From: a virus
Virus record (IMG/VR): IMGVR_UViG_3300026521_000466
Coordinates: 64,001 to 128,000 of that record
Reading direction: 5' to 3' (one strand)
DNA length: 64,000 nt
The first letter of the stretch is position 1. Each line of letters opens with the position of its first letter. A program made the position numbers and the translations under genes. The notes beneath the pieces were generated by a model. That model was not told the DNA's origin. It searched no databases and saw only the letters and a program-made list of their open reading frames with translations. Below are positions 2,106 through 18,509 of this stretch, piece by piece.

Positions 2106-3185
2106 TTATTCCTCTACGTGCAGTATTCTTAATCTGTTGTTGTCAACGACATATGTTTTGTCATTGACTTTTAGATAGTTTATTCCGCCCGCCTCTTTGC
2201 TTATATCGTGTAGGTATGATGTGGATGGGATGTCTACCCAGTCGAGAGTGTCAAATGACGTAGTCTCCTCTACCATATACTCGATATTGGATAGGAGCAG
2301 TTTCTTCTCCAATAGCACAGAGAGCTTATCACCTGCTTTATATCCTTTATCCTCGAACATCTCCTTGAAAAGAACCTCTATCTTGTTCACCGCTTCTTTA
2401 TCGGTTTCTTCCAACTCCATATTTTTCAAGGATTGGAAATCCGTAATGAAATTTGTAAAGTTGGTAAAAGTGATATTTACCAAATAAGAATTTGCCAAAT
2501 GGTATAAGAACTTGTTGAACTCATCAGGCAGCTCTTTTGGAGCTATGTTTGATTTGTTCAACAAGGCGTTTATTACCGTGGGCGCGATATCCTCTTTCAG
2601 AATATACTTTTCTTCTGCTTGGAAGAAGACCAACTTCTCCATCTCCCCGCCTGCTAGTTTGACAGACCATGGATGTATAACCTTATTGAGGTTGATGCTT
2701 TCCGGCACGCTCACCTCTTTGGCGAATTTGTATGGATGGTATATTTTATGTGCATCTTCCTGCACCGGTTCTTTCCCCGGCGTTTTTGACTGGACTGTCT
2801 CATTCTGTACATCGTCAAATAGACCGCTGCTGTTACAAATTGTCGATGGAGAAGTGAACATATCATCCCCTTCCAATCCTGTTTTTGATTCATCGAACAG
2901 AGAGTCGTTATCCCAGAGCCCGCCGCCGCTAGTATCCCAAAGACCGCCTCCTTGACCGCCCCATCCACTATCTGACGAACCCCAACTGCCCGATGAGTCC
3001 CATCCACTATCAGACCCATCCCATCCGCCTGAGCCTCCCCAGCTGCTTGAACGACTCTTTATTCTCTTTACCAGTTTTGGTTCTCTATAGAGTTTTTTCT
3101 CTCCAAACTCATTGGTGATACCTATTAAGTAAATACCGTCTCCCCTACGTGTGTAGAGTTTATTGCCTCTCCTGATTACTTTCAT
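2106..3185 (-). CDS. Early hypothetical protein with a Gly/Ser/Trp low-complexity repeat region
   Basis: 359-aa ORF with AAAGGA RBS and an early promoter motif upstream; contains SSSWGGSGGWDGSDSGWDSSGSWG...GGLWD. Confidence 0.75.
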   Translation of the reverse strand: MKVIRRGNKLYTRRGDGIYLIGITNEFGEKKLYREPKLVKRIKSRSSSWGGSGGWDGSDSGWDSSGSWGSSDSGWGGQGGGLWDTSGGGLWDNDSLFDESKTGLEGDDMFTSPSTICNSSGLFDDVQNETVQSKTPGKEPVQEDAHKIYHPYKFAKEVSVPESINLNKVIHPWSVKLAGGEMEKLVFFQAEEKYILKEDIAPTVINALLNKSNIAPKELPDEFNKFLYHLANSYLVNITFTNFTNFITDFQSLKNMELEETDKEAVNKIEVLFKEMFEDKGYKAGDKLSVLLEKKLLLSNIEYMVEETTSFDTLDWVDIPSTSYLHDISKEAGGINYLKVNDKTYVVDNNRLRILHVEE

Positions 3186-3236
3186 ATCTATCCTTTATTT
3201 TTTGTGTTAGTGGATTTAGCTACTATCCACTACATA

Positions 3237-11339: not shown

Positions 11340-11381
11340 GTTTTTTTCCTTTTTTTAGTATACTACATCTGTAGTTCACCA

Positions 11382-11391
11382 TAATAATATA
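11382..11391 (-). promoter_or_regulatory. Early promoter motif TATATTATTA
   Basis: One of 12 intergenic copies, all oriented toward minus-strand genes. Confidence 0.7.
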
Positions 11392-11405
11392 CAAAAGAAA
11401 AAATA

Positions 11406-12437: not shown

Positions 12438-13928
12438 TTATGCATAGAGTGTATTCGGGTATGTAGATTCTGTTATTGTCTTAACTCTCTGCAAGAGATA
12501 CTTTTTATTTCTTCTTACATATTTAGCATGTTGCGGAACTACTGTGGATACTAATTGTGTAAATATTACCTGTACCTCATTTTCTCTCAATCTTCCTATC
12601 ATTTGGAACAGGGCAGATATACTATCCATATTAATAGTATTTAGCGTGTAGATAAGCCCTTTAATGTCAATAGCTGCACCCAATGATTGTGAGTGTGATA
12701 CTCTGATGTCAGGCTCTAAGGCATTCTCATATTTTGAACCGCCTATATATTTCCTTACATCTAAGTCTTTATAGTGTTTCTTCAAACTCTCTGTTAGAAA
12801 ATCTATCATATCAAGAGATGATGCATAAACCAAACACTTATGGCCATCCTCTCTCTTTGACATATAATGTTTATCAATATAGAAAACTACCATGCGGAAG
12901 AACTCTTTTCTCAATCTCTTATTTTGCAATATGAATTTTTCAAATCGCTTATGTGAGTAGCCGTATCCGTATGAGAAGTTCATGCGTTTAGCAGAATGGA
13001 TATGATAGTTTGCATTCTCTATGATAGTAAATCGTTTATATGCCTCCAGCGCTAATCTTGACTCTTTAGGAAACAGTTGTTTATGGAACTTTTCCAATGA
13101 ACTATCCTTCGTGATCAGGGTAGCGCTCAACGCAATCATTCTTTTTGGATCTAGCATCATAGTTGCTATGAATATGTTATTAAACGATTGATGTGTTTCA
13201 TCTGAAAGCATAATGCCTAGATTCTTTTTCTCCATAAACTCATCAGGCTGTAGTGCATATCCATCATTCACTATAGCGGAGTTTGACGTATTTTCAAAAT
13301 AGACCCTCATAGTATCAGCAGACGCGATAACTATTTTGTACTGTTTGCTGTCATCCATAAACTCCTTTAAGGAATCACTCCCCTGTATTACACATATCTC
13401 GTCCTTAGTTACTTTTAGATAGGTTTCGATATCCTCTATCCATTTATCTATATAGCGAGGAAGGATATATATTAGTACACCTTTGTTTATTTTTGATATA
13501 GCCTCTGCAAACATATATGTTTTACCATATCCTGTCTCAGCTTCAACTATGACTCTGTGATGTGATTTATCAGAAACCATACCGTCGATAAAGAACGGTT
13601 GCTCATCACGCGGTGTAAATGATACATTCATCTCAAACGGCACAGTGTCAGTATCAGTCTCTCTTACCGATACGGCGACATCCCGTTTACTAATACCATT
13701 ACTGAATATATGGTAAAAGAACTCTTTCATTAATGTATCGATTATTACATATTCATGTTTATAATTTATATAGTAGTAGTAGCGATCAGACTTTTCATAC
13801 TTGGTAATACCTTTAGATCTTACTGGTTTATAGGTATATGAATTTCTGAGAAATCCTTTTACTACCCTATCCTCTTTGTCATCTGAGGGCAGTACCCTGA
13901 TTGTTTGGTTGTAGCGTATAACTTTCAT
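12438..13928 (-). CDS. Superfamily 2 DExH helicase (phiKZ gp75-like)
   Basis: Q motif PRDEQ, Walker A AETGYGKT, DETH, SAT, QMIGRLR; lies downstream of nvRNAP beta'-C. Confidence 0.9.
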   Translation of the reverse strand: MKVIRYNQTIRVLPSDDKEDRVVKGFLRNSYTYKPVRSKGITKYEKSDRYYYYINYKHEYVIIDTLMKEFFYHIFSNGISKRDVAVSVRETDTDTVPFEMNVSFTPRDEQPFFIDGMVSDKSHHRVIVEAETGYGKTYMFAEAISKINKGVLIYILPRYIDKWIEDIETYLKVTKDEICVIQGSDSLKEFMDDSKQYKIVIASADTMRVYFENTSNSAIVNDGYALQPDEFMEKKNLGIMLSDETHQSFNNIFIATMMLDPKRMIALSATLITKDSSLEKFHKQLFPKESRLALEAYKRFTIIENANYHIHSAKRMNFSYGYGYSHKRFEKFILQNKRLRKEFFRMVVFYIDKHYMSKREDGHKCLVYASSLDMIDFLTESLKKHYKDLDVRKYIGGSKYENALEPDIRVSHSQSLGAAIDIKGLIYTLNTINMDSISALFQMIGRLRENEVQVIFTQLVSTVVPQHAKYVRRNKKYLLQRVKTITESTYPNTLYA

Positions 13929-13980
13929 ACCCTCTCCTTATAGTAGTTAAGACATTATCATAGAAACATCTTATGTACAA

Positions 13981-13990
13981 TAATAATATA
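13981..13990 (-). promoter_or_regulatory. Early promoter motif for the helicase
   Basis: TATATTATTA about 50 nt upstream of the start codon. Confidence 0.7.
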
Positions 13991-14011
13991 TAAAGAAAAA
14001 AAACTAACCCA

Positions 14012-14044
14012 CGACATCATATGGTTTGCGGCCATATGATGTCG
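14012..14044 (-). terminator. Intrinsic terminator closing the ncRNA
   Basis: 13-bp stem CGACATCATATGG/CCATATGATGTCG followed on the minus strand by TGGGTTAG and an 8-T run. Confidence 0.8.
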
Positions 14045-14478
14045 GTTACATACTCACTCAACTGTGCACTGTCGAGGGCTGCTTGCATTTGTACCTTTTC
14101 TGGGTAAAGGCGTCTCCTTCAGGTCAACTCCGGAGATCTTACTTCATAAACTGGGGCTGGTCCCCATTAACGACAGGAGTTACCGATGACCCGGCTATCC
14201 CCACGGCGTTTTACGACATACACGCTCTGCCGGAGCAGGTCAGACTACCCCACTCACTTTTACGAGGCCACAATGCCTCTTCCATATAGCGATATAGTGC
14301 CATGTCCGTTTAGCACTTCAGTCATTTGTTTCGCGCAATGACATTACCCGCCGCGAGAACAGTGTTTGCAAGTCACTGTTCATTTATGGTCCTTTCGGAC
14401 GTGCTTTGGCCGTCGCCGCGATAATCATATCACCAAGTATAACTACCGCAAATACAGAATTTCCTATCCTATACTCAC
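14012..14478 (-). ncRNA. Putative large structured non-coding RNA (~460 nt), family unknown
   Basis: About 50% GC (209 of 420 nt counted over 14041-14460); bounded by a promoter motif and a terminator; many stems including GUCC-GAAA-GGAC; no credible sense-strand ORF. Confidence 0.75.
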
Positions 14479-14480
14479 AA

Positions 14481-14490
14481 TAATAATATA
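14481..14490 (-). promoter_or_regulatory. Early promoter motif driving the ncRNA
   Basis: TATATTATTA immediately upstream of the GC-rich block. Confidence 0.7.
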
Positions 14491-14529
14491 TAAACATAGT
14501 ATCTTGGAAATTGAAAAAAGATAATGTCA

Positions 14530-14553
14530 CCTAGGTGGAATTAACCACCTAGG
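14530..14553 (-). terminator. Terminator after nvRNAP beta'-C
   Basis: CCTAGGTGG-aattaa-CCACCTAGG overlapping the stop codon, then a T-tract. Confidence 0.7.
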
Positions 14554-16438
14554 AGAGTAACTCTTTTGGACAATGCACAACATCCAGCGGATGCGGAGTT
14601 TTATCTTCATAAAAGTTCATTATGTTAAGGAACGTATCTTTCTCACCCATGTTCAGTGCAGTGGTAAGACATCTATTCCTATATATCTGTTTGGTTTTAC
14701 CTATTTGTGCATTCACTCCTCTCACTAATCTGAAATCATAAGTAGCAGGATTCCTAGAGGTATATGCATAGGCCACCAGTGCAGCATGACTAATATGGAG
14801 ATAGAGTTTACTGTTATAGAGAGTGAATAGATTTAACAGTAGTTCACCTGCCGTTTCTATTGTTTCTCCATTGGGTGTCTTGGATGAATCCAGTATTGAC
14901 CTAATATTCTTATTCAGTATATTATAATCAAACACCTCTTCCGGTAGGAACATGATCCCATCTCTCTTATTCCATCCGCTCATATCTATCATATAGTTAC
15001 CATAGTCATCTATTGAGTAACCATGCTTCACTACATAGAGTAGGAACTTGTTTGTAAAGACAGCTGTCTTATTACCGCTTTTCACTTTCAAACTAATGGT
15101 CTCTACACCTTTGCGTGTGTTGTTCTCAATAACAAATCCACTTACATTTGATATCCGTGTAGGATCTGCAAGTTTCGCCATATCCACAGTTTTCAAATCT
15201 TTCAGTCCGTAGAACTGTTCAGAGCTGATTCTCAGTATTGGCTTCTTACCGATAGGCTCTTTAAAGTAGAGCGTATTGTCTTTCACCTTTATATACTTAG
15301 ATACATCACTTTCCAATACATAGACAGTGCCATCCGCAGATACAATATAGTGTTTTGTACTAAGCAGAGACTGCGTAGCTGGCTCATTGATCTTCGTACA
15401 TGCCCAGTGTCCCAGGTTGAACTTCATGAGTTTCTCATACCCCTGCACGCCATAACAATGGACACAGACAGTATCTTCTCGCTCATGCTTACAGGAGATT
15501 GCTGTTCGTATATAGATATACTTCCCAATGATCTCTTTTGTATCTTTGGTAATTAGTCTCCACTCATCCTCTTTGTTATACTTAAAGTATTGGCCTACCA
15601 CACCTTTGAATGTTCCGGGTGTTATATTGGATTTAGGTTCAATGTATATCAGAGTCCCTTCATCTGTACCACAATCATCATATGATAGATACTTTACCAC
15701 TTCAGATATTGTTTGTGTATGTTTGGCAAATGTCTCCGCATCCTGAATAGATGTCTTGGAGAAGACCAATGAAGTAACTGCACCGCGTGATTCCCCGGCA
15801 TACTCTACAATATCAGTAATACCTTCAATATATCCTGTAGTGACAGGCTTCTTGAATATTTGACTGTCAAAGTCTGATGGGTATCCCCTTAACACACATT
15901 GGTCAAACTGTCTGGCAGATACACTCTTGTTTATATAGGTATGAGCCACTTGGTTGTCTGCCAATTTTGCAGAGTTGAATATCACATCTCTTACTGCGGC
16001 ATAGACATCCTGCACACCCTCTTTGGTAGGGTGTTCTCTAAACTCTTTTAGCTTAGCCTGTACTTCATCCATATAGACTATCTCCAAGACATCATCAAAG
16101 TCGGAGAAGATAACGGATTCCATATTCTCATAGGCTAATTTATTATAGATAAAACTGATAGTGTCGAATACATGTTTTGACAACAACTCCAACTTGTTAA
16201 CCAGAGTATGGTCGTTGATAGATTTAAATAGTATATCCGTAACTATATGGTCAAACACTGATGTTACAGACGATTTTTCAAATCTGCCATCTACATAGTG
16301 TGATGTAATACTATACTCCTGTTTCAGCGGAAGACGGAAGACAGAGAGTACTTCCCATATCTTCATGTTTATCTCATAGACCAATGGTACTTGAGACTCC
16401 ACTACACCATTCGTAAACTTTACCTTTTCAATCTTCAT
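14549..16438 (-). CDS. Non-virion RNA polymerase beta' C-terminal subunit (phiKZ gp74-like)
   Basis: RG..SD, ESRGA, DC.T, RTAISC...VC.HCYG zinc site, TQSLLSTKH trigger-loop region. Confidence 0.9.
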   Translation of the reverse strand: MKIEKVKFTNGVVESQVPLVYEINMKIWEVLSVFRLPLKQEYSITSHYVDGRFEKSSVTSVFDHIVTDILFKSINDHTLVNKLELLSKHVFDTISFIYNKLAYENMESVIFSDFDDVLEIVYMDEVQAKLKEFREHPTKEGVQDVYAAVRDVIFNSAKLADNQVAHTYINKSVSARQFDQCVLRGYPSDFDSQIFKKPVTTGYIEGITDIVEYAGESRGAVTSLVFSKTSIQDAETFAKHTQTISEVVKYLSYDDCGTDEGTLIYIEPKSNITPGTFKGVVGQYFKYNKEDEWRLITKDTKEIIGKYIYIRTAISCKHEREDTVCVHCYGVQGYEKLMKFNLGHWACTKINEPATQSLLSTKHYIVSADGTVYVLESDVSKYIKVKDNTLYFKEPIGKKPILRISSEQFYGLKDLKTVDMAKLADPTRISNVSGFVIENNTRKGVETISLKVKSGNKTAVFTNKFLLYVVKHGYSIDDYGNYMIDMSGWNKRDGIMFLPEEVFDYNILNKNIRSILDSSKTPNGETIETAGELLLNLFTLYNSKLYLHISHAALVAYAYTSRNPATYDFRLVRGVNAQIGKTKQIYRNRCLTTALNMGEKDTFLNIMNFYEDKTPHPLDVVHCPKELLS

Positions 16439-18509
16439 TGTTTTCCCTTAACTCTAAACCATAGCCAAATGTATTGGTTATTGATTTGTGGATATTCACC
16501 ACAGTCTCATTTCCGAACGGCACTTTATCTCTTGGCGTAATGTCATCTATATCGGTTGGCTTATCGGTAGTCAATATGACATCACACATATGCAATAGTG
16601 TAGGAACAGAGAGATTTCTATCCCTAAACTCAGCCAAGGCCTCTTCACCTGCATACGCTGCAAAGAATCTCAAGTCTGTTTCGGAACCTATCTTTACAGG
16701 CGTTGCATTATAGAGCATCATACTCTTCAATGTTTTTGACGGTGATACAGGCAAGGTAAACGGATTCAGTCTGGCAGTAGATACGGCCAACCAGTCATCT
16801 CCTGTCTTATTGAGCATGAACATATACTGTCTTGATATATATGTTTTATTTACAGTATACTCATTCTTACCATTGAATCTTAGTAGAACCTTATCTTTCT
16901 TCGGACTATAGCCTTTTGCCTTTAATCTCTTGATAACAATATTGTCATCCATATTATCTTCAGAGATATTCTGATCTACATGGAATTTGATATAGAGGTT
17001 GTCTTCCACTATATCTAACAATACAACCTTTCTCTGTTTCTCTGTGAGTTTCTTATATCCCTTATACTGTACTTCATCGATACAGGATATGAAATCCAAC
17101 AGTTGCTCATATATGGTTGAAGTATCATTATGGATTATCTTCTCTTTCACAGTTTCACCAGGAAGTTTCTTAATCTCTTCGATCAGCTTCTTCCTAAATA
17201 TAGTAACTGTAGTCAAAACAAATCCTTCCGCCGGATTACCCATGTTCATACGACGATTTGAGCTAGATGGATCAAACATCATATCTGCCACTAATCCATT
17301 GGCATCTACAGGCATCTCCTCTTTAGGAAGTACCATACTGACAATACCTTTACTACCGTGTGTGGTAGTGAGTTTAATACCGTTATGCGGCACTTTATCA
17401 TACTTCACAACAATATCTATCTCAAACTCATTGGCTGGGTCTTGCATATATTTGTTCTTCACTTTAGGGTGCTCTAATGCCTGTAACCTTACAAGAGTTA
17501 CATGTAGTGTGTTCCCAAACTCTACATTGGTAAATTGCCGCTTCAACTCTTTACAAGTCTCTATGAAGTTTTTGTTATACGCATGTTTATGTTCAGCGAG
17601 TTCTCTCAAGTGATCAAATGCTTTAGTTACATGAGCTTTATTTTTTGTTTGTGGTGTATAGATAATATTTATATCTTCTATTACACCTGATGCAGAACCT
17701 ATTCGGTAAACATCATCGTATAGAGGAGATATCTCTTTCAGTTGATCCTTTGACATCAGCACATGAGCAAACATAGGATCTACTTCGCGGATAGCCATAA
17801 CTACACCATTCTCCTTTACTTTCTCACCGTAATCAGGAAGAATTTTATATGCATCATCGTCTCCAAAGATATTCAGTGGTATTCTATCATTACCGGCATT
17901 GGTATGTATATGTGAAAACAGTGGATATTTCAATCTCTTCATCAACTCATCAGATACCACCATCGCATCTTCTCCTACCTCTCCGATAGAGATAGGCAGA
18001 ATATTAACTTCAACCCCATGACTATAGACACCGTCTTTATCTGAGTTTGTACTGGTCAGCTTTGTATTCGCAGGCAGCACATCCTCTTCTTCCATAAGCA
18101 GTGTCACATCTTCAAGAGTTTGAACGTATCCAAACTTCTTGTCTTTCTTTCCCCATTTAAAGACTCTTTCCAAGTCTATTGTGTTTAATTCATAGTCGTA
18201 ATAGATAATGTCTATGAACATAGCTTTTGAATAATCATCAGTATACTGATCCACATTCGGGGGATAGTACGGCATGATCTTCAATATCTTTGATTTGTTC
18301 TCCAACTTGTGGTTGAAGTTACATTTAGCCATCTCTCGCTCCAACCCCGTTATTAATGTGGGTGTGTCTGGCTCGTATGGCAGCAAAAGGTTCCCCATTT
18401 GCGAGTTAGTCATAAATCCCCTGGCAGAGGAGTCTTTTAACTGAAATCTGTTAAAGGCACTGATCCCCAAATGCCTCATCCTTACCGGTATTCTTTTTTT
18501 ATGTGACAT
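16428..18509 (-). CDS. Non-virion RNA polymerase beta C-terminal subunit (phiKZ gp71-73-like), uninterrupted
   Basis: SSARGFM..SQ, GEDAMVVS, GIKLTTTHGSKGIV, RRMN.G, YMFMLNK, GSETDLR. Confidence 0.92.
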   Translation of the reverse strand: MSHKKRIPVRMRHLGISAFNRFQLKDSSARGFMTNSQMGNLLLPYEPDTPTLITGLEREMAKCNFNHKLENKSKILKIMPYYPPNVDQYTDDYSKAMFIDIIYYDYELNTIDLERVFKWGKKDKKFGYVQTLEDVTLLMEEEDVLPANTKLTSTNSDKDGVYSHGVEVNILPISIGEVGEDAMVVSDELMKRLKYPLFSHIHTNAGNDRIPLNIFGDDDAYKILPDYGEKVKENGVVMAIREVDPMFAHVLMSKDQLKEISPLYDDVYRIGSASGVIEDINIIYTPQTKNKAHVTKAFDHLRELAEHKHAYNKNFIETCKELKRQFTNVEFGNTLHVTLVRLQALEHPKVKNKYMQDPANEFEIDIVVKYDKVPHNGIKLTTTHGSKGIVSMVLPKEEMPVDANGLVADMMFDPSSSNRRMNMGNPAEGFVLTTVTIFRKKLIEEIKKLPGETVKEKIIHNDTSTIYEQLLDFISCIDEVQYKGYKKLTEKQRKVVLLDIVEDNLYIKFHVDQNISEDNMDDNIVIKRLKAKGYSPKKDKVLLRFNGKNEYTVNKTYISRQYMFMLNKTGDDWLAVSTARLNPFTLPVSPSKTLKSMMLYNATPVKIGSETDLRFFAAYAGEEALAEFRDRNLSVPTLLHMCDVILTTDKPTDIDDITPRDKVPFGNETVVNIHKSITNTFGYGLELRENNED

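Follow-up and report, generated by a model that had tools for sequence, protein, structure and literature searches.

Within the 164,797-bp record of an uncultured jumbo phage, estimated to be around 61% complete, a GC-rich block of DNA lies between the gene for a non-virion RNAP beta'-like subunit and that for an SF2 helicase (Table 1). The region was analysed as part of a window of 64,000 nt, comprising bases 64001-128000 of the record, and positions given here are those of the window. On the basis of annotation and synteny, the beta' gene is the homologue of phiKZ gp74 and 201phi2-1 gp130, and the helicase gene that of phiKZ gp75; with the RNAP beta-like gene they form a trio corresponding to phiKZ gp71-73, gp74 and gp75, according to the annotation of 201phi2-1 gp129-131. 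Both genes flanking the block are full length when compared with those of relatives, and neither is interrupted by it. In tblastn searches the beta' protein is 24-27% identical to those of cultured jumbo phages, and its best homologue among 5.8 billion protein clusters has 40% identity. The phage is remote from every cultured one and, as a relative of the phiKZ-like phages, branches deeply. The order of the RNAP beta, RNAP beta' and SF2 helicase genes is conserved between this phage, metagenomic relatives, Bacillus phage AgentSmith, Pseudomonas phage PA7 and 201phi2-1 (window positions 12438-18509 and loci L005, L194-L196 and L207-L209).

Table 1. Features of the beta'-helicase junction and its surroundings, in the direction of minus-strand transcription.
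Feature	Positions	Strand	Basis
RNAP beta-like gene	16428-18509	minus	Pfam RNA_pol_Rpb2_6; phrog_3295
Non-virion RNAP beta'-like subunit gene, 629 aa (upstream of the block)	14549-16438	minus	phrog_3015, E = 7.7e-107; tblastn to jumbo-phage beta' genes
Presumed end of the beta' transcript: hairpin CCUAGGUGG/CCACCUAGG, T6 run 10 nt downstream	14513-14553	minus	inverted repeats, sequence
Promoter copy P1, TTTATATATTATTATTGT, with core TATATTATTA at 14481-14490	14477-14494	minus	exact 18-nt repeat of P2
5' domain: six consecutive predicted hairpins, including GUCC-GAAA-GGAC and the 8-bp GAACAGUG/CACUGUUC	14260-14476	minus	z = -3.08; 0 of 200 shuffles as stable
3' part: 52% GC, no predicted fold beyond that expected from composition	14046-14259	minus	z = +0.30; 115 of 200 shuffles fold as well
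Presumed 3' end of the unit: perfect 13-bp hairpin (14012-14024/14032-14044), 7-nt loop, 8-nt spacer, T8 run (13996-14003)	13996-14044	minus	inverted repeat, sequence
Promoter copy P2, serving the helicase gene	13977-13994	minus	repeat 100% identical to P1
SF2 helicase gene, 496 aa (downstream of the block)	12438-13928	minus	Pfam ResIII, E = 4.1e-12, and DEAD; phrog_16; synteny in relatives

A preliminary description of this locus had reported a block of approximately 50% GC in AT-rich surroundings, and this is accurate. The 431-nt core of the block (14046-14476, minus strand) has a GC content of 49%, compared with a genome mean of 34.9% (standard deviation 3.6%), and sliding 300-nt windows within the block peak at 51-52%, around 4.4 standard deviations above the genome mean. 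No other strong GC island of the 165-kb record is free of both ORFs and tRNA genes. The other equally strong island in the window (approximately 2650-3200, reaching 53% GC) is coding, being situated inside a 359-aa ORF on the minus strand (2106-3185). Within this ORF, positions 2650-3100 encode a low-complexity stretch rich in Gly, Ser, Trp and Asp, with repeats of the SGWGS and GGWD types.

The block itself is non-coding. None of the stop-to-stop frames on the minus strand of the core exceeds 33 aa, and recoding the block, either with genetic code 4 (TGA) or by reading TAG as Q, opens no frame. Its three-base periodicity is 0.86, relative to approximately 1.07 in shuffled sequences, while 44 windows of the same size in the neighbouring genes all lie between 1.43 and 9.17, and searches of Pfam and PHROG with every frame of the block returned no match. 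The combined results for frames, periodicity, recoding and protein families rule out a protein-coding gene. A 93-aa frame on the plus strand was considered as a protein and rejected, its three phmmer matches among 1.84 billion representatives not being credible. The best of these (E = 5.7e-9 and 2e-4) have scores summed over the internal repeats of repetitive proteins, and each matched stretch of the frame amounts to around 30-35 bits, which is not significant for a library of that size. It is also very unlikely that the block specifies micro-proteins, whether from a 21-codon frame beginning AUGAACAGUGAC (14318-14383, minus strand) or a 30-codon frame at 14211-14303. Such small frames do exist, and the first is preceded by an SD-like AAAGGA (AGGA lying 6 nt upstream), but the SD-like bases are enclosed within the GUCC-GAAA-GGAC hairpin. 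Furthermore, these frames cover less than 35% of the unit, no periodicity or family match was found, and the GC content of the unit is far from that of the phage's genes.

Each border of the block is marked by the same three kinds of signal: hairpin, T run and promoter. The two promoter copies, whose starts are 500 nt apart, are the only occurrences of this 18-nt variant; the next-best promoters of the same family differ at 2 or more of 17 positions. That family, characterised by the core TATATTATTA, has around 28 copies in the whole record, nearly all of which are intergenic and on the minus strand, and the promoter motif originally attributed to the block is thus one member of a recurrent set. 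In most copies the bases following the core conform to (T/C/A)(A/G/T)(G/T)T(G/A). P1 has the exact core and otherwise qualifies as a family member, but neither the TTAGGTG leader nor the T-rich element upstream is present; a few other members likewise lack the two, and several lack the latter. The resemblance of the family to the AT-rich early promoters of phiKZ, which has 28 of them (PMC8244752), and to the early promoter motif of 201phi2-1 (PMC11512511) suggests by analogy alone that these promoters may be active early, through recognition by the virion RNAP.

A number of further regularities were apparent in this family. The consensus is TTTTTTCTTTT-G-TATATTATTA-TAGTGG, with TTTTTTCTTTT ahead of most copies, and the TTAGGTG leader is found 10-20 nt downstream of many. 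Minus-strand copies in the window include those at 11378-11394, 18543, 39970, 41046, 55689, 59763, 62936 and 63334. Across the family, the T run of the preceding terminator consists of the same bases as the T-rich upstream element of the promoter.

The T8 run downstream of the block similarly doubles as the T-rich upstream element of P2. The 13-bp stem and eight-T run previously described as a terminator are both present, but their spacing is non-canonical: the gap between stem and T run is 8-10 nt in this hairpin and in that following beta', and a simple terminator scan calls neither. A bulged 4-bp extension, UAAC/GUUA, can be read from the sequence and would place the 13-bp stem beside the U run. 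The insulation of the block from its neighbours is as had been claimed, with beta' having its own 9-bp hairpin and the helicase gene the second promoter copy. The beta' hairpin (CCTAGGTGG...CCACCTAGG, 14528-14553) is palindromic and includes the TAG stop codon, such that the end of the CDS and the presumed terminator stem overlap. The block has the form originally ascribed to it, that of a separate, non-coding unit on the minus strand, delimited by promoter and hairpin, between the gp74 and gp75 homologues.

No known RNA family accounts for the block. At the gathering score, Rfam 15 gave no match anywhere in the window, including to ROOL, GOLLD, OLE, group I and II introns, RNase P, tmRNA, 6S and SRP. 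When the threshold was relaxed to E <= 10 for positions 13800-14700, nothing was found inside the block and only four junk matches outside it. ARAGORN found no tRNA or tmRNA in the window. Hence the comparison with Rfam proposed in the preliminary description yielded no known family at either threshold, and its statement that signatures of tRNA, tmRNA, RNase P, SRP and group II introns are lacking is confirmed by the two programs.

The block could nevertheless be a known RNA, such as the remnant of a group I or II intron or a captured host RNA, that has diverged or degenerated beyond recognition by covariance models. Hairpins with GNRA (GAAA) and UNCG-type (UCCG) tetraloops are present, and the 5' hairpin UGAGUAUAG/UUAUACUUG has a possible resemblance to P2 of the T4 td intron, which is a lead in favour of a diverged intron. 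Jumbo phages do carry introns (PMC11512511). By contrast, the absence of Rfam matches in the block even at E <= 10, the negative ARAGORN result and the uninterrupted, full-length state of both neighbouring genes argue against such an origin, to which little credence can be given.

Relatives of the block itself were likewise not detected. It occurs once in its own genome, and blastn found nothing in 50,697 phage records, whether the block was used alone under settings for distant similarity or with 5 kb around it under settings for near matches, and no relative in plasmids. Comparison with five related IMG/VR records by BLAST identified only 14-nt chance words, and nhmmer at E <= 10 found no homologue in the records of four relatives, the rest of the genome or any of the loci retrieved. 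Exact-word scans of viral, genome and metagenome collections gave counts equal to those expected by chance, with no match that could be extended by BLAST or nhmmer. Among the GC-rich non-coding islands of three related genomes (G001, G003 and G004) there was no convincing counterpart, the candidate in G004 appearing to be coding. Nor was there an excess of potential antisense targets, as the block shares four words of at least 12 nt with the rest of the record, compared with 7 +/- 3 in shuffled sequences.

The junction occupied by the block is otherwise compact. Searches for related loci through beta' retrieved ten viral loci when an alignment was used, none with a single protein and none in genome contigs. 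Ten relatives, some of them cultured phages, were inspected, and in each the beta-beta'-helicase junction is tight, at -32 to +137 nt, and the block is absent; the beta'-helicase spacer of the present phage is 620 nt. The helicase gene follows beta' at -32 (L005), +8 (L195), +33 (L194) and +113 nt (L196) in four metagenomic relatives, and after 52 nt in Bacillus phage AgentSmith, 58 nt in Pseudomonas phage PA7 (a Phikzvirus) and 137 nt in 201phi2-1. In three other relatives (L002, L004 and L197), the helicase gene is replaced by one encoding 777-786 aa, located 14-21 nt after beta'. As the junction is tight in every one of the ten, the block is a lineage-specific insertion, and as these relatives retain the junction without it, the neighbouring genes do not need it. 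The gp74-gp75 intergenic region of relatives had been suggested as a place in which to seek copies of the block, and none of the ten contains one. The proposed connection to phage-nucleus, RNAP or helicase biology, which had been drawn from position, is unsupported and runs counter to what the relatives show.

With a hairpin, T run and promoter at both borders of the insert, and an exact 18-nt repeat flanking it, recombination or duplication at the promoter would be the simplest origin. Terminal inverted repeats were not found at the ends of the block. A comparable arrangement is that of promoter-early stem-loop (PeSL) cassettes, for which excision as mini-circles is also characteristic and by which T4-type phages shuffle their accessory DNA (Arbiol et al. 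2010, PMC2839356; PMC4122927). In both cases an early-type promoter and a terminator stem-loop are present at each border of a variable, lineage-specific insert, and the duplicated regulatory flanks fit recombination between cassettes. However, the promoters at this locus are AT-rich and phiKZ-like, whereas those of PeSL are sigma-70-like; the cargo is non-coding, rather than an ORFan gene; and the insert is within a junction of core genes, rather than a hyperplastic region. The block does have the configuration of a PeSL-like cassette, in that a promoter and a stem-loop lie on both sides of an insert missing in relatives, although the closest of these is only approximately 40% identical in beta' and they are not, strictly, close relatives.

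A unique and compositionally different block in an uncultured viral contig might alternatively be a chimeric insertion introduced during metagenome assembly. Two independent misjoins would be needed to generate it, and both borders carry the phage's own signals, a member of the promoter family at one and the T-rich element with the second promoter at the other. The 18-nt repeat is also shorter than the k-mers usually employed in assembly. That the block is such an artefact is hardly credible.

The block had been characterised as highly structured, and this applies to only part of it. The whole unit (14012-14480) has a predicted folding energy of -163.3 kcal/mol (z = -3.72) and the plus strand z = -1.03; it is therefore the transcribed strand that folds better, as favours an RNA product. 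The core without the terminator hairpin has z = -1.82 (plus strand +0.66). The comparison with dinucleotide-shuffled controls, proposed as a check on the fold, thus comes out clearly for the whole unit but not for the core alone. The 5' ~215 nt are the only part that folds better than shuffled sequences, and a second, scripted computation gave a z of -3.37 for this half (plus strand -1.8) and +0.36 for the 3' part. Among sixty random 217-nt windows from the same genome and strand, the mean z was -0.93 (standard deviation 1.34), with 6.7% at or below -3; the 5' domain is in the top few per cent of genome windows and is not exceptional. Furthermore, the fold is poorly defined in both halves, as the MFE and centroid structures differ widely.

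Individual elements of this structure are subject to similar qualification. The block contains 36 perfect stems of at least 5 bp, compared with 26.3 +/- 4.9 in dinucleotide shuffles (p ~0.03), and 16 of at least 6 bp, compared with 9.9 +/- 3.2. Such counts are only mildly above those of the shuffles, such that most individual stems are to be expected by chance: those listed in the preliminary description exist in the sequence, but the majority at close to chance frequency. Likewise, the presence of GUGAGUAU at both ends is real, but approximately one 8-mer repeat is estimated to occur by chance in 430 nt. Longer, imperfect internal repeats, UCGUAAAA-N6-GUGGGG and UU(A/C)UCGCGGCG, are each found twice. 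Internal repeats were considered as binding motifs or target-site duplications and rejected, each having an estimated chance expectation of 0.5-1.4 occurrences in 430 nt.

The density of short inverted repeats, and the adjoining helicase gene, would also suit an element acting as DNA, such as an origin of replication or a site for packaging or for protein binding. This is highly improbable. Across the region, cumulative GC skew continues without changing course, neither iterons nor tandem repeats are present, and relatives with the same helicase do not have the block. The strand asymmetry in folding, which depends on G-U pairs, points instead to RNA.

Composition and structure also bear on whether the block might be passenger DNA, a foreign, GC-richer fragment trapped between duplicated promoter and hairpin cassettes and transcribed without having a function. 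Such an origin would be consistent with an insert unique to one lineage, missing from ten relatives and flanked by an exact 18-nt repeat, with no homologue or detectable target and a 3' half no more structured than shuffled sequences. However, captured bacterial or phage DNA is usually coding, and the lack of any ORF remnant, periodicity or protein match indicates that this is not a recent coding piece; an old neutral insert should, in turn, have drifted towards 35% GC and lost its excess. Comparisons with phages and plasmids and the k-mer scans did not reveal a source, and the 5' half surpasses shuffled sequences on the transcribed strand only. Passenger DNA is consequently considered a rather unlikely explanation, though one of some weight. 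An RNA gene is instead suggested by the combination of no frame or periodicity with a GC content maintained in a genome of 35% GC.

Klein, Misulovin and Eddy reportedly found, in 2002, that GC-rich islands mark RNA genes in AT-rich genomes. The block would be a candidate on these grounds, being free of ORFs and exceeding the GC content of the genome by around 15 points, and the other ORF-free GC island of this phage carries a tRNA behind a promoter of the same family, which implies that such DNA marks RNA genes in this genome. The criterion nevertheless flags candidates and does not establish function. As to the type of RNA, the block had been likened to the large ornate RNAs ROOL, OLE and GOLLD. 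It is similarly non-coding and hundreds of nucleotides in length, and phages or prophages are among the carriers of GOLLD and ROOL. By contrast, what defines those RNAs is a large set of homologues that share conserved sequence blocks and multi-domain folds with covarying base pairs, whereas the block is an orphan that matches none of their models and of which only half folds better than chance. The comparison is not supported, given the lack of any homologue and a 5' domain that outperforms shuffled sequences to an extent seen in approximately 1 in 15 genome windows; the block is plausibly an orphan candidate ncRNA cassette, and not a demonstrated large ornate RNA. The sRNAs mapped in the transcriptomes of phiKZ and 201phi2-1 are < 250 nt long and mostly derived from 5' UTRs, with at least one conserved in position among genera (PMC11512511; PMC8244752). 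These, like the predicted transcript of the block, are phage non-coding RNAs bounded by phage promoters and terminators, some of them intergenic; unlike them, the block is approximately 460 nt long, free-standing and not conserved.

A non-coding unit, its anomalous composition, the signals bounding it and its absence from relatives are direct observations, and the best explanation of them is a stand-alone accessory ncRNA gene of unassigned role, gained as a promoter-terminator cassette. The candidacy is evenly poised between being right and wrong. In such a scheme, the unit would have been inserted into the tight beta'-helicase junction through recombination or duplication at the promoter, leaving the identical 18-nt copies. 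Transcription from P1 would start near 14472-14476 on the minus strand and produce an RNA of approximately 455-480 nt, its 3' end being provided by the 13-bp hairpin with the U run (14044-13996). The product would act as RNA, its 5' domain of around 215 nt being rich in hairpins and its GC-rich 3' part less ordered, and may be dispensable to its RNAP and helicase neighbours in the manner of a moron. It might serve as a regulator, or as a decoy for some RNA-binding factor of the host or of a phage. Weighing against an ncRNA are an orphan sequence, which as such provides no signal of covariation or selection, the moderate z-scores and the frequency of similar ones in random windows, the disagreement of MFE and centroid structures, the mild enrichment of stems, the lack of a T-rich element and of the leader at P1, the non-canonical terminators and the absence of excess targets.

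A more ambitious proposal, and an unlikely one, would make the block the first representative to be sampled of a new class of large RNAs in jumbo phages. The RNA would be made early by the virion polymerase, from a unit gained as a mobile promoter-terminator cassette. Its structured 5' domain and GC-rich 3' tail would target an RNA-binding or nucleic-acid-sensing factor of the host or phage, either as decoy or as regulator, in the first minutes of infection. If functional, the block would stand out as a free-standing RNA gene of unusual size in a phage that branches deeply from the phiKZ-like ones, and would indicate that promoter-terminator cassettes can bring RNA cargo even to gene junctions that are among the most conserved in these genomes. 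For now, the block is a single unconserved sequence, with moderate folding, from one metagenomic contig, and its main practical value is as a locus to revisit once closer relatives or transcriptomes appear.

The second ORF-free, GC-rich island of the record is a better-supported candidate for structured RNA than the 14046-14476 block. It extends for approximately 1.1 kb behind a promoter of the TATATTATTA family (G000:C1:155349-156476; around 550-1680 of locus L174, minus strand) and holds a tRNA-Met(CAT) at 1030-1106 of that locus. The tRNA is the only Rfam match at E <= 0.01, with three others at chance level (E 0.016-0.64). Relative to shuffled sequences, the 521 nt upstream of it have a folding z of -2.86 and the 386 nt downstream a z of -6.36. 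Directly after the tRNA-Met is a tRNA-like minihelix of around 50 nt, consisting of an acceptor-like stem, GCCUCCC/GGGAGGC, and a T-arm, GAUGGUUCGAUUCCAUC.
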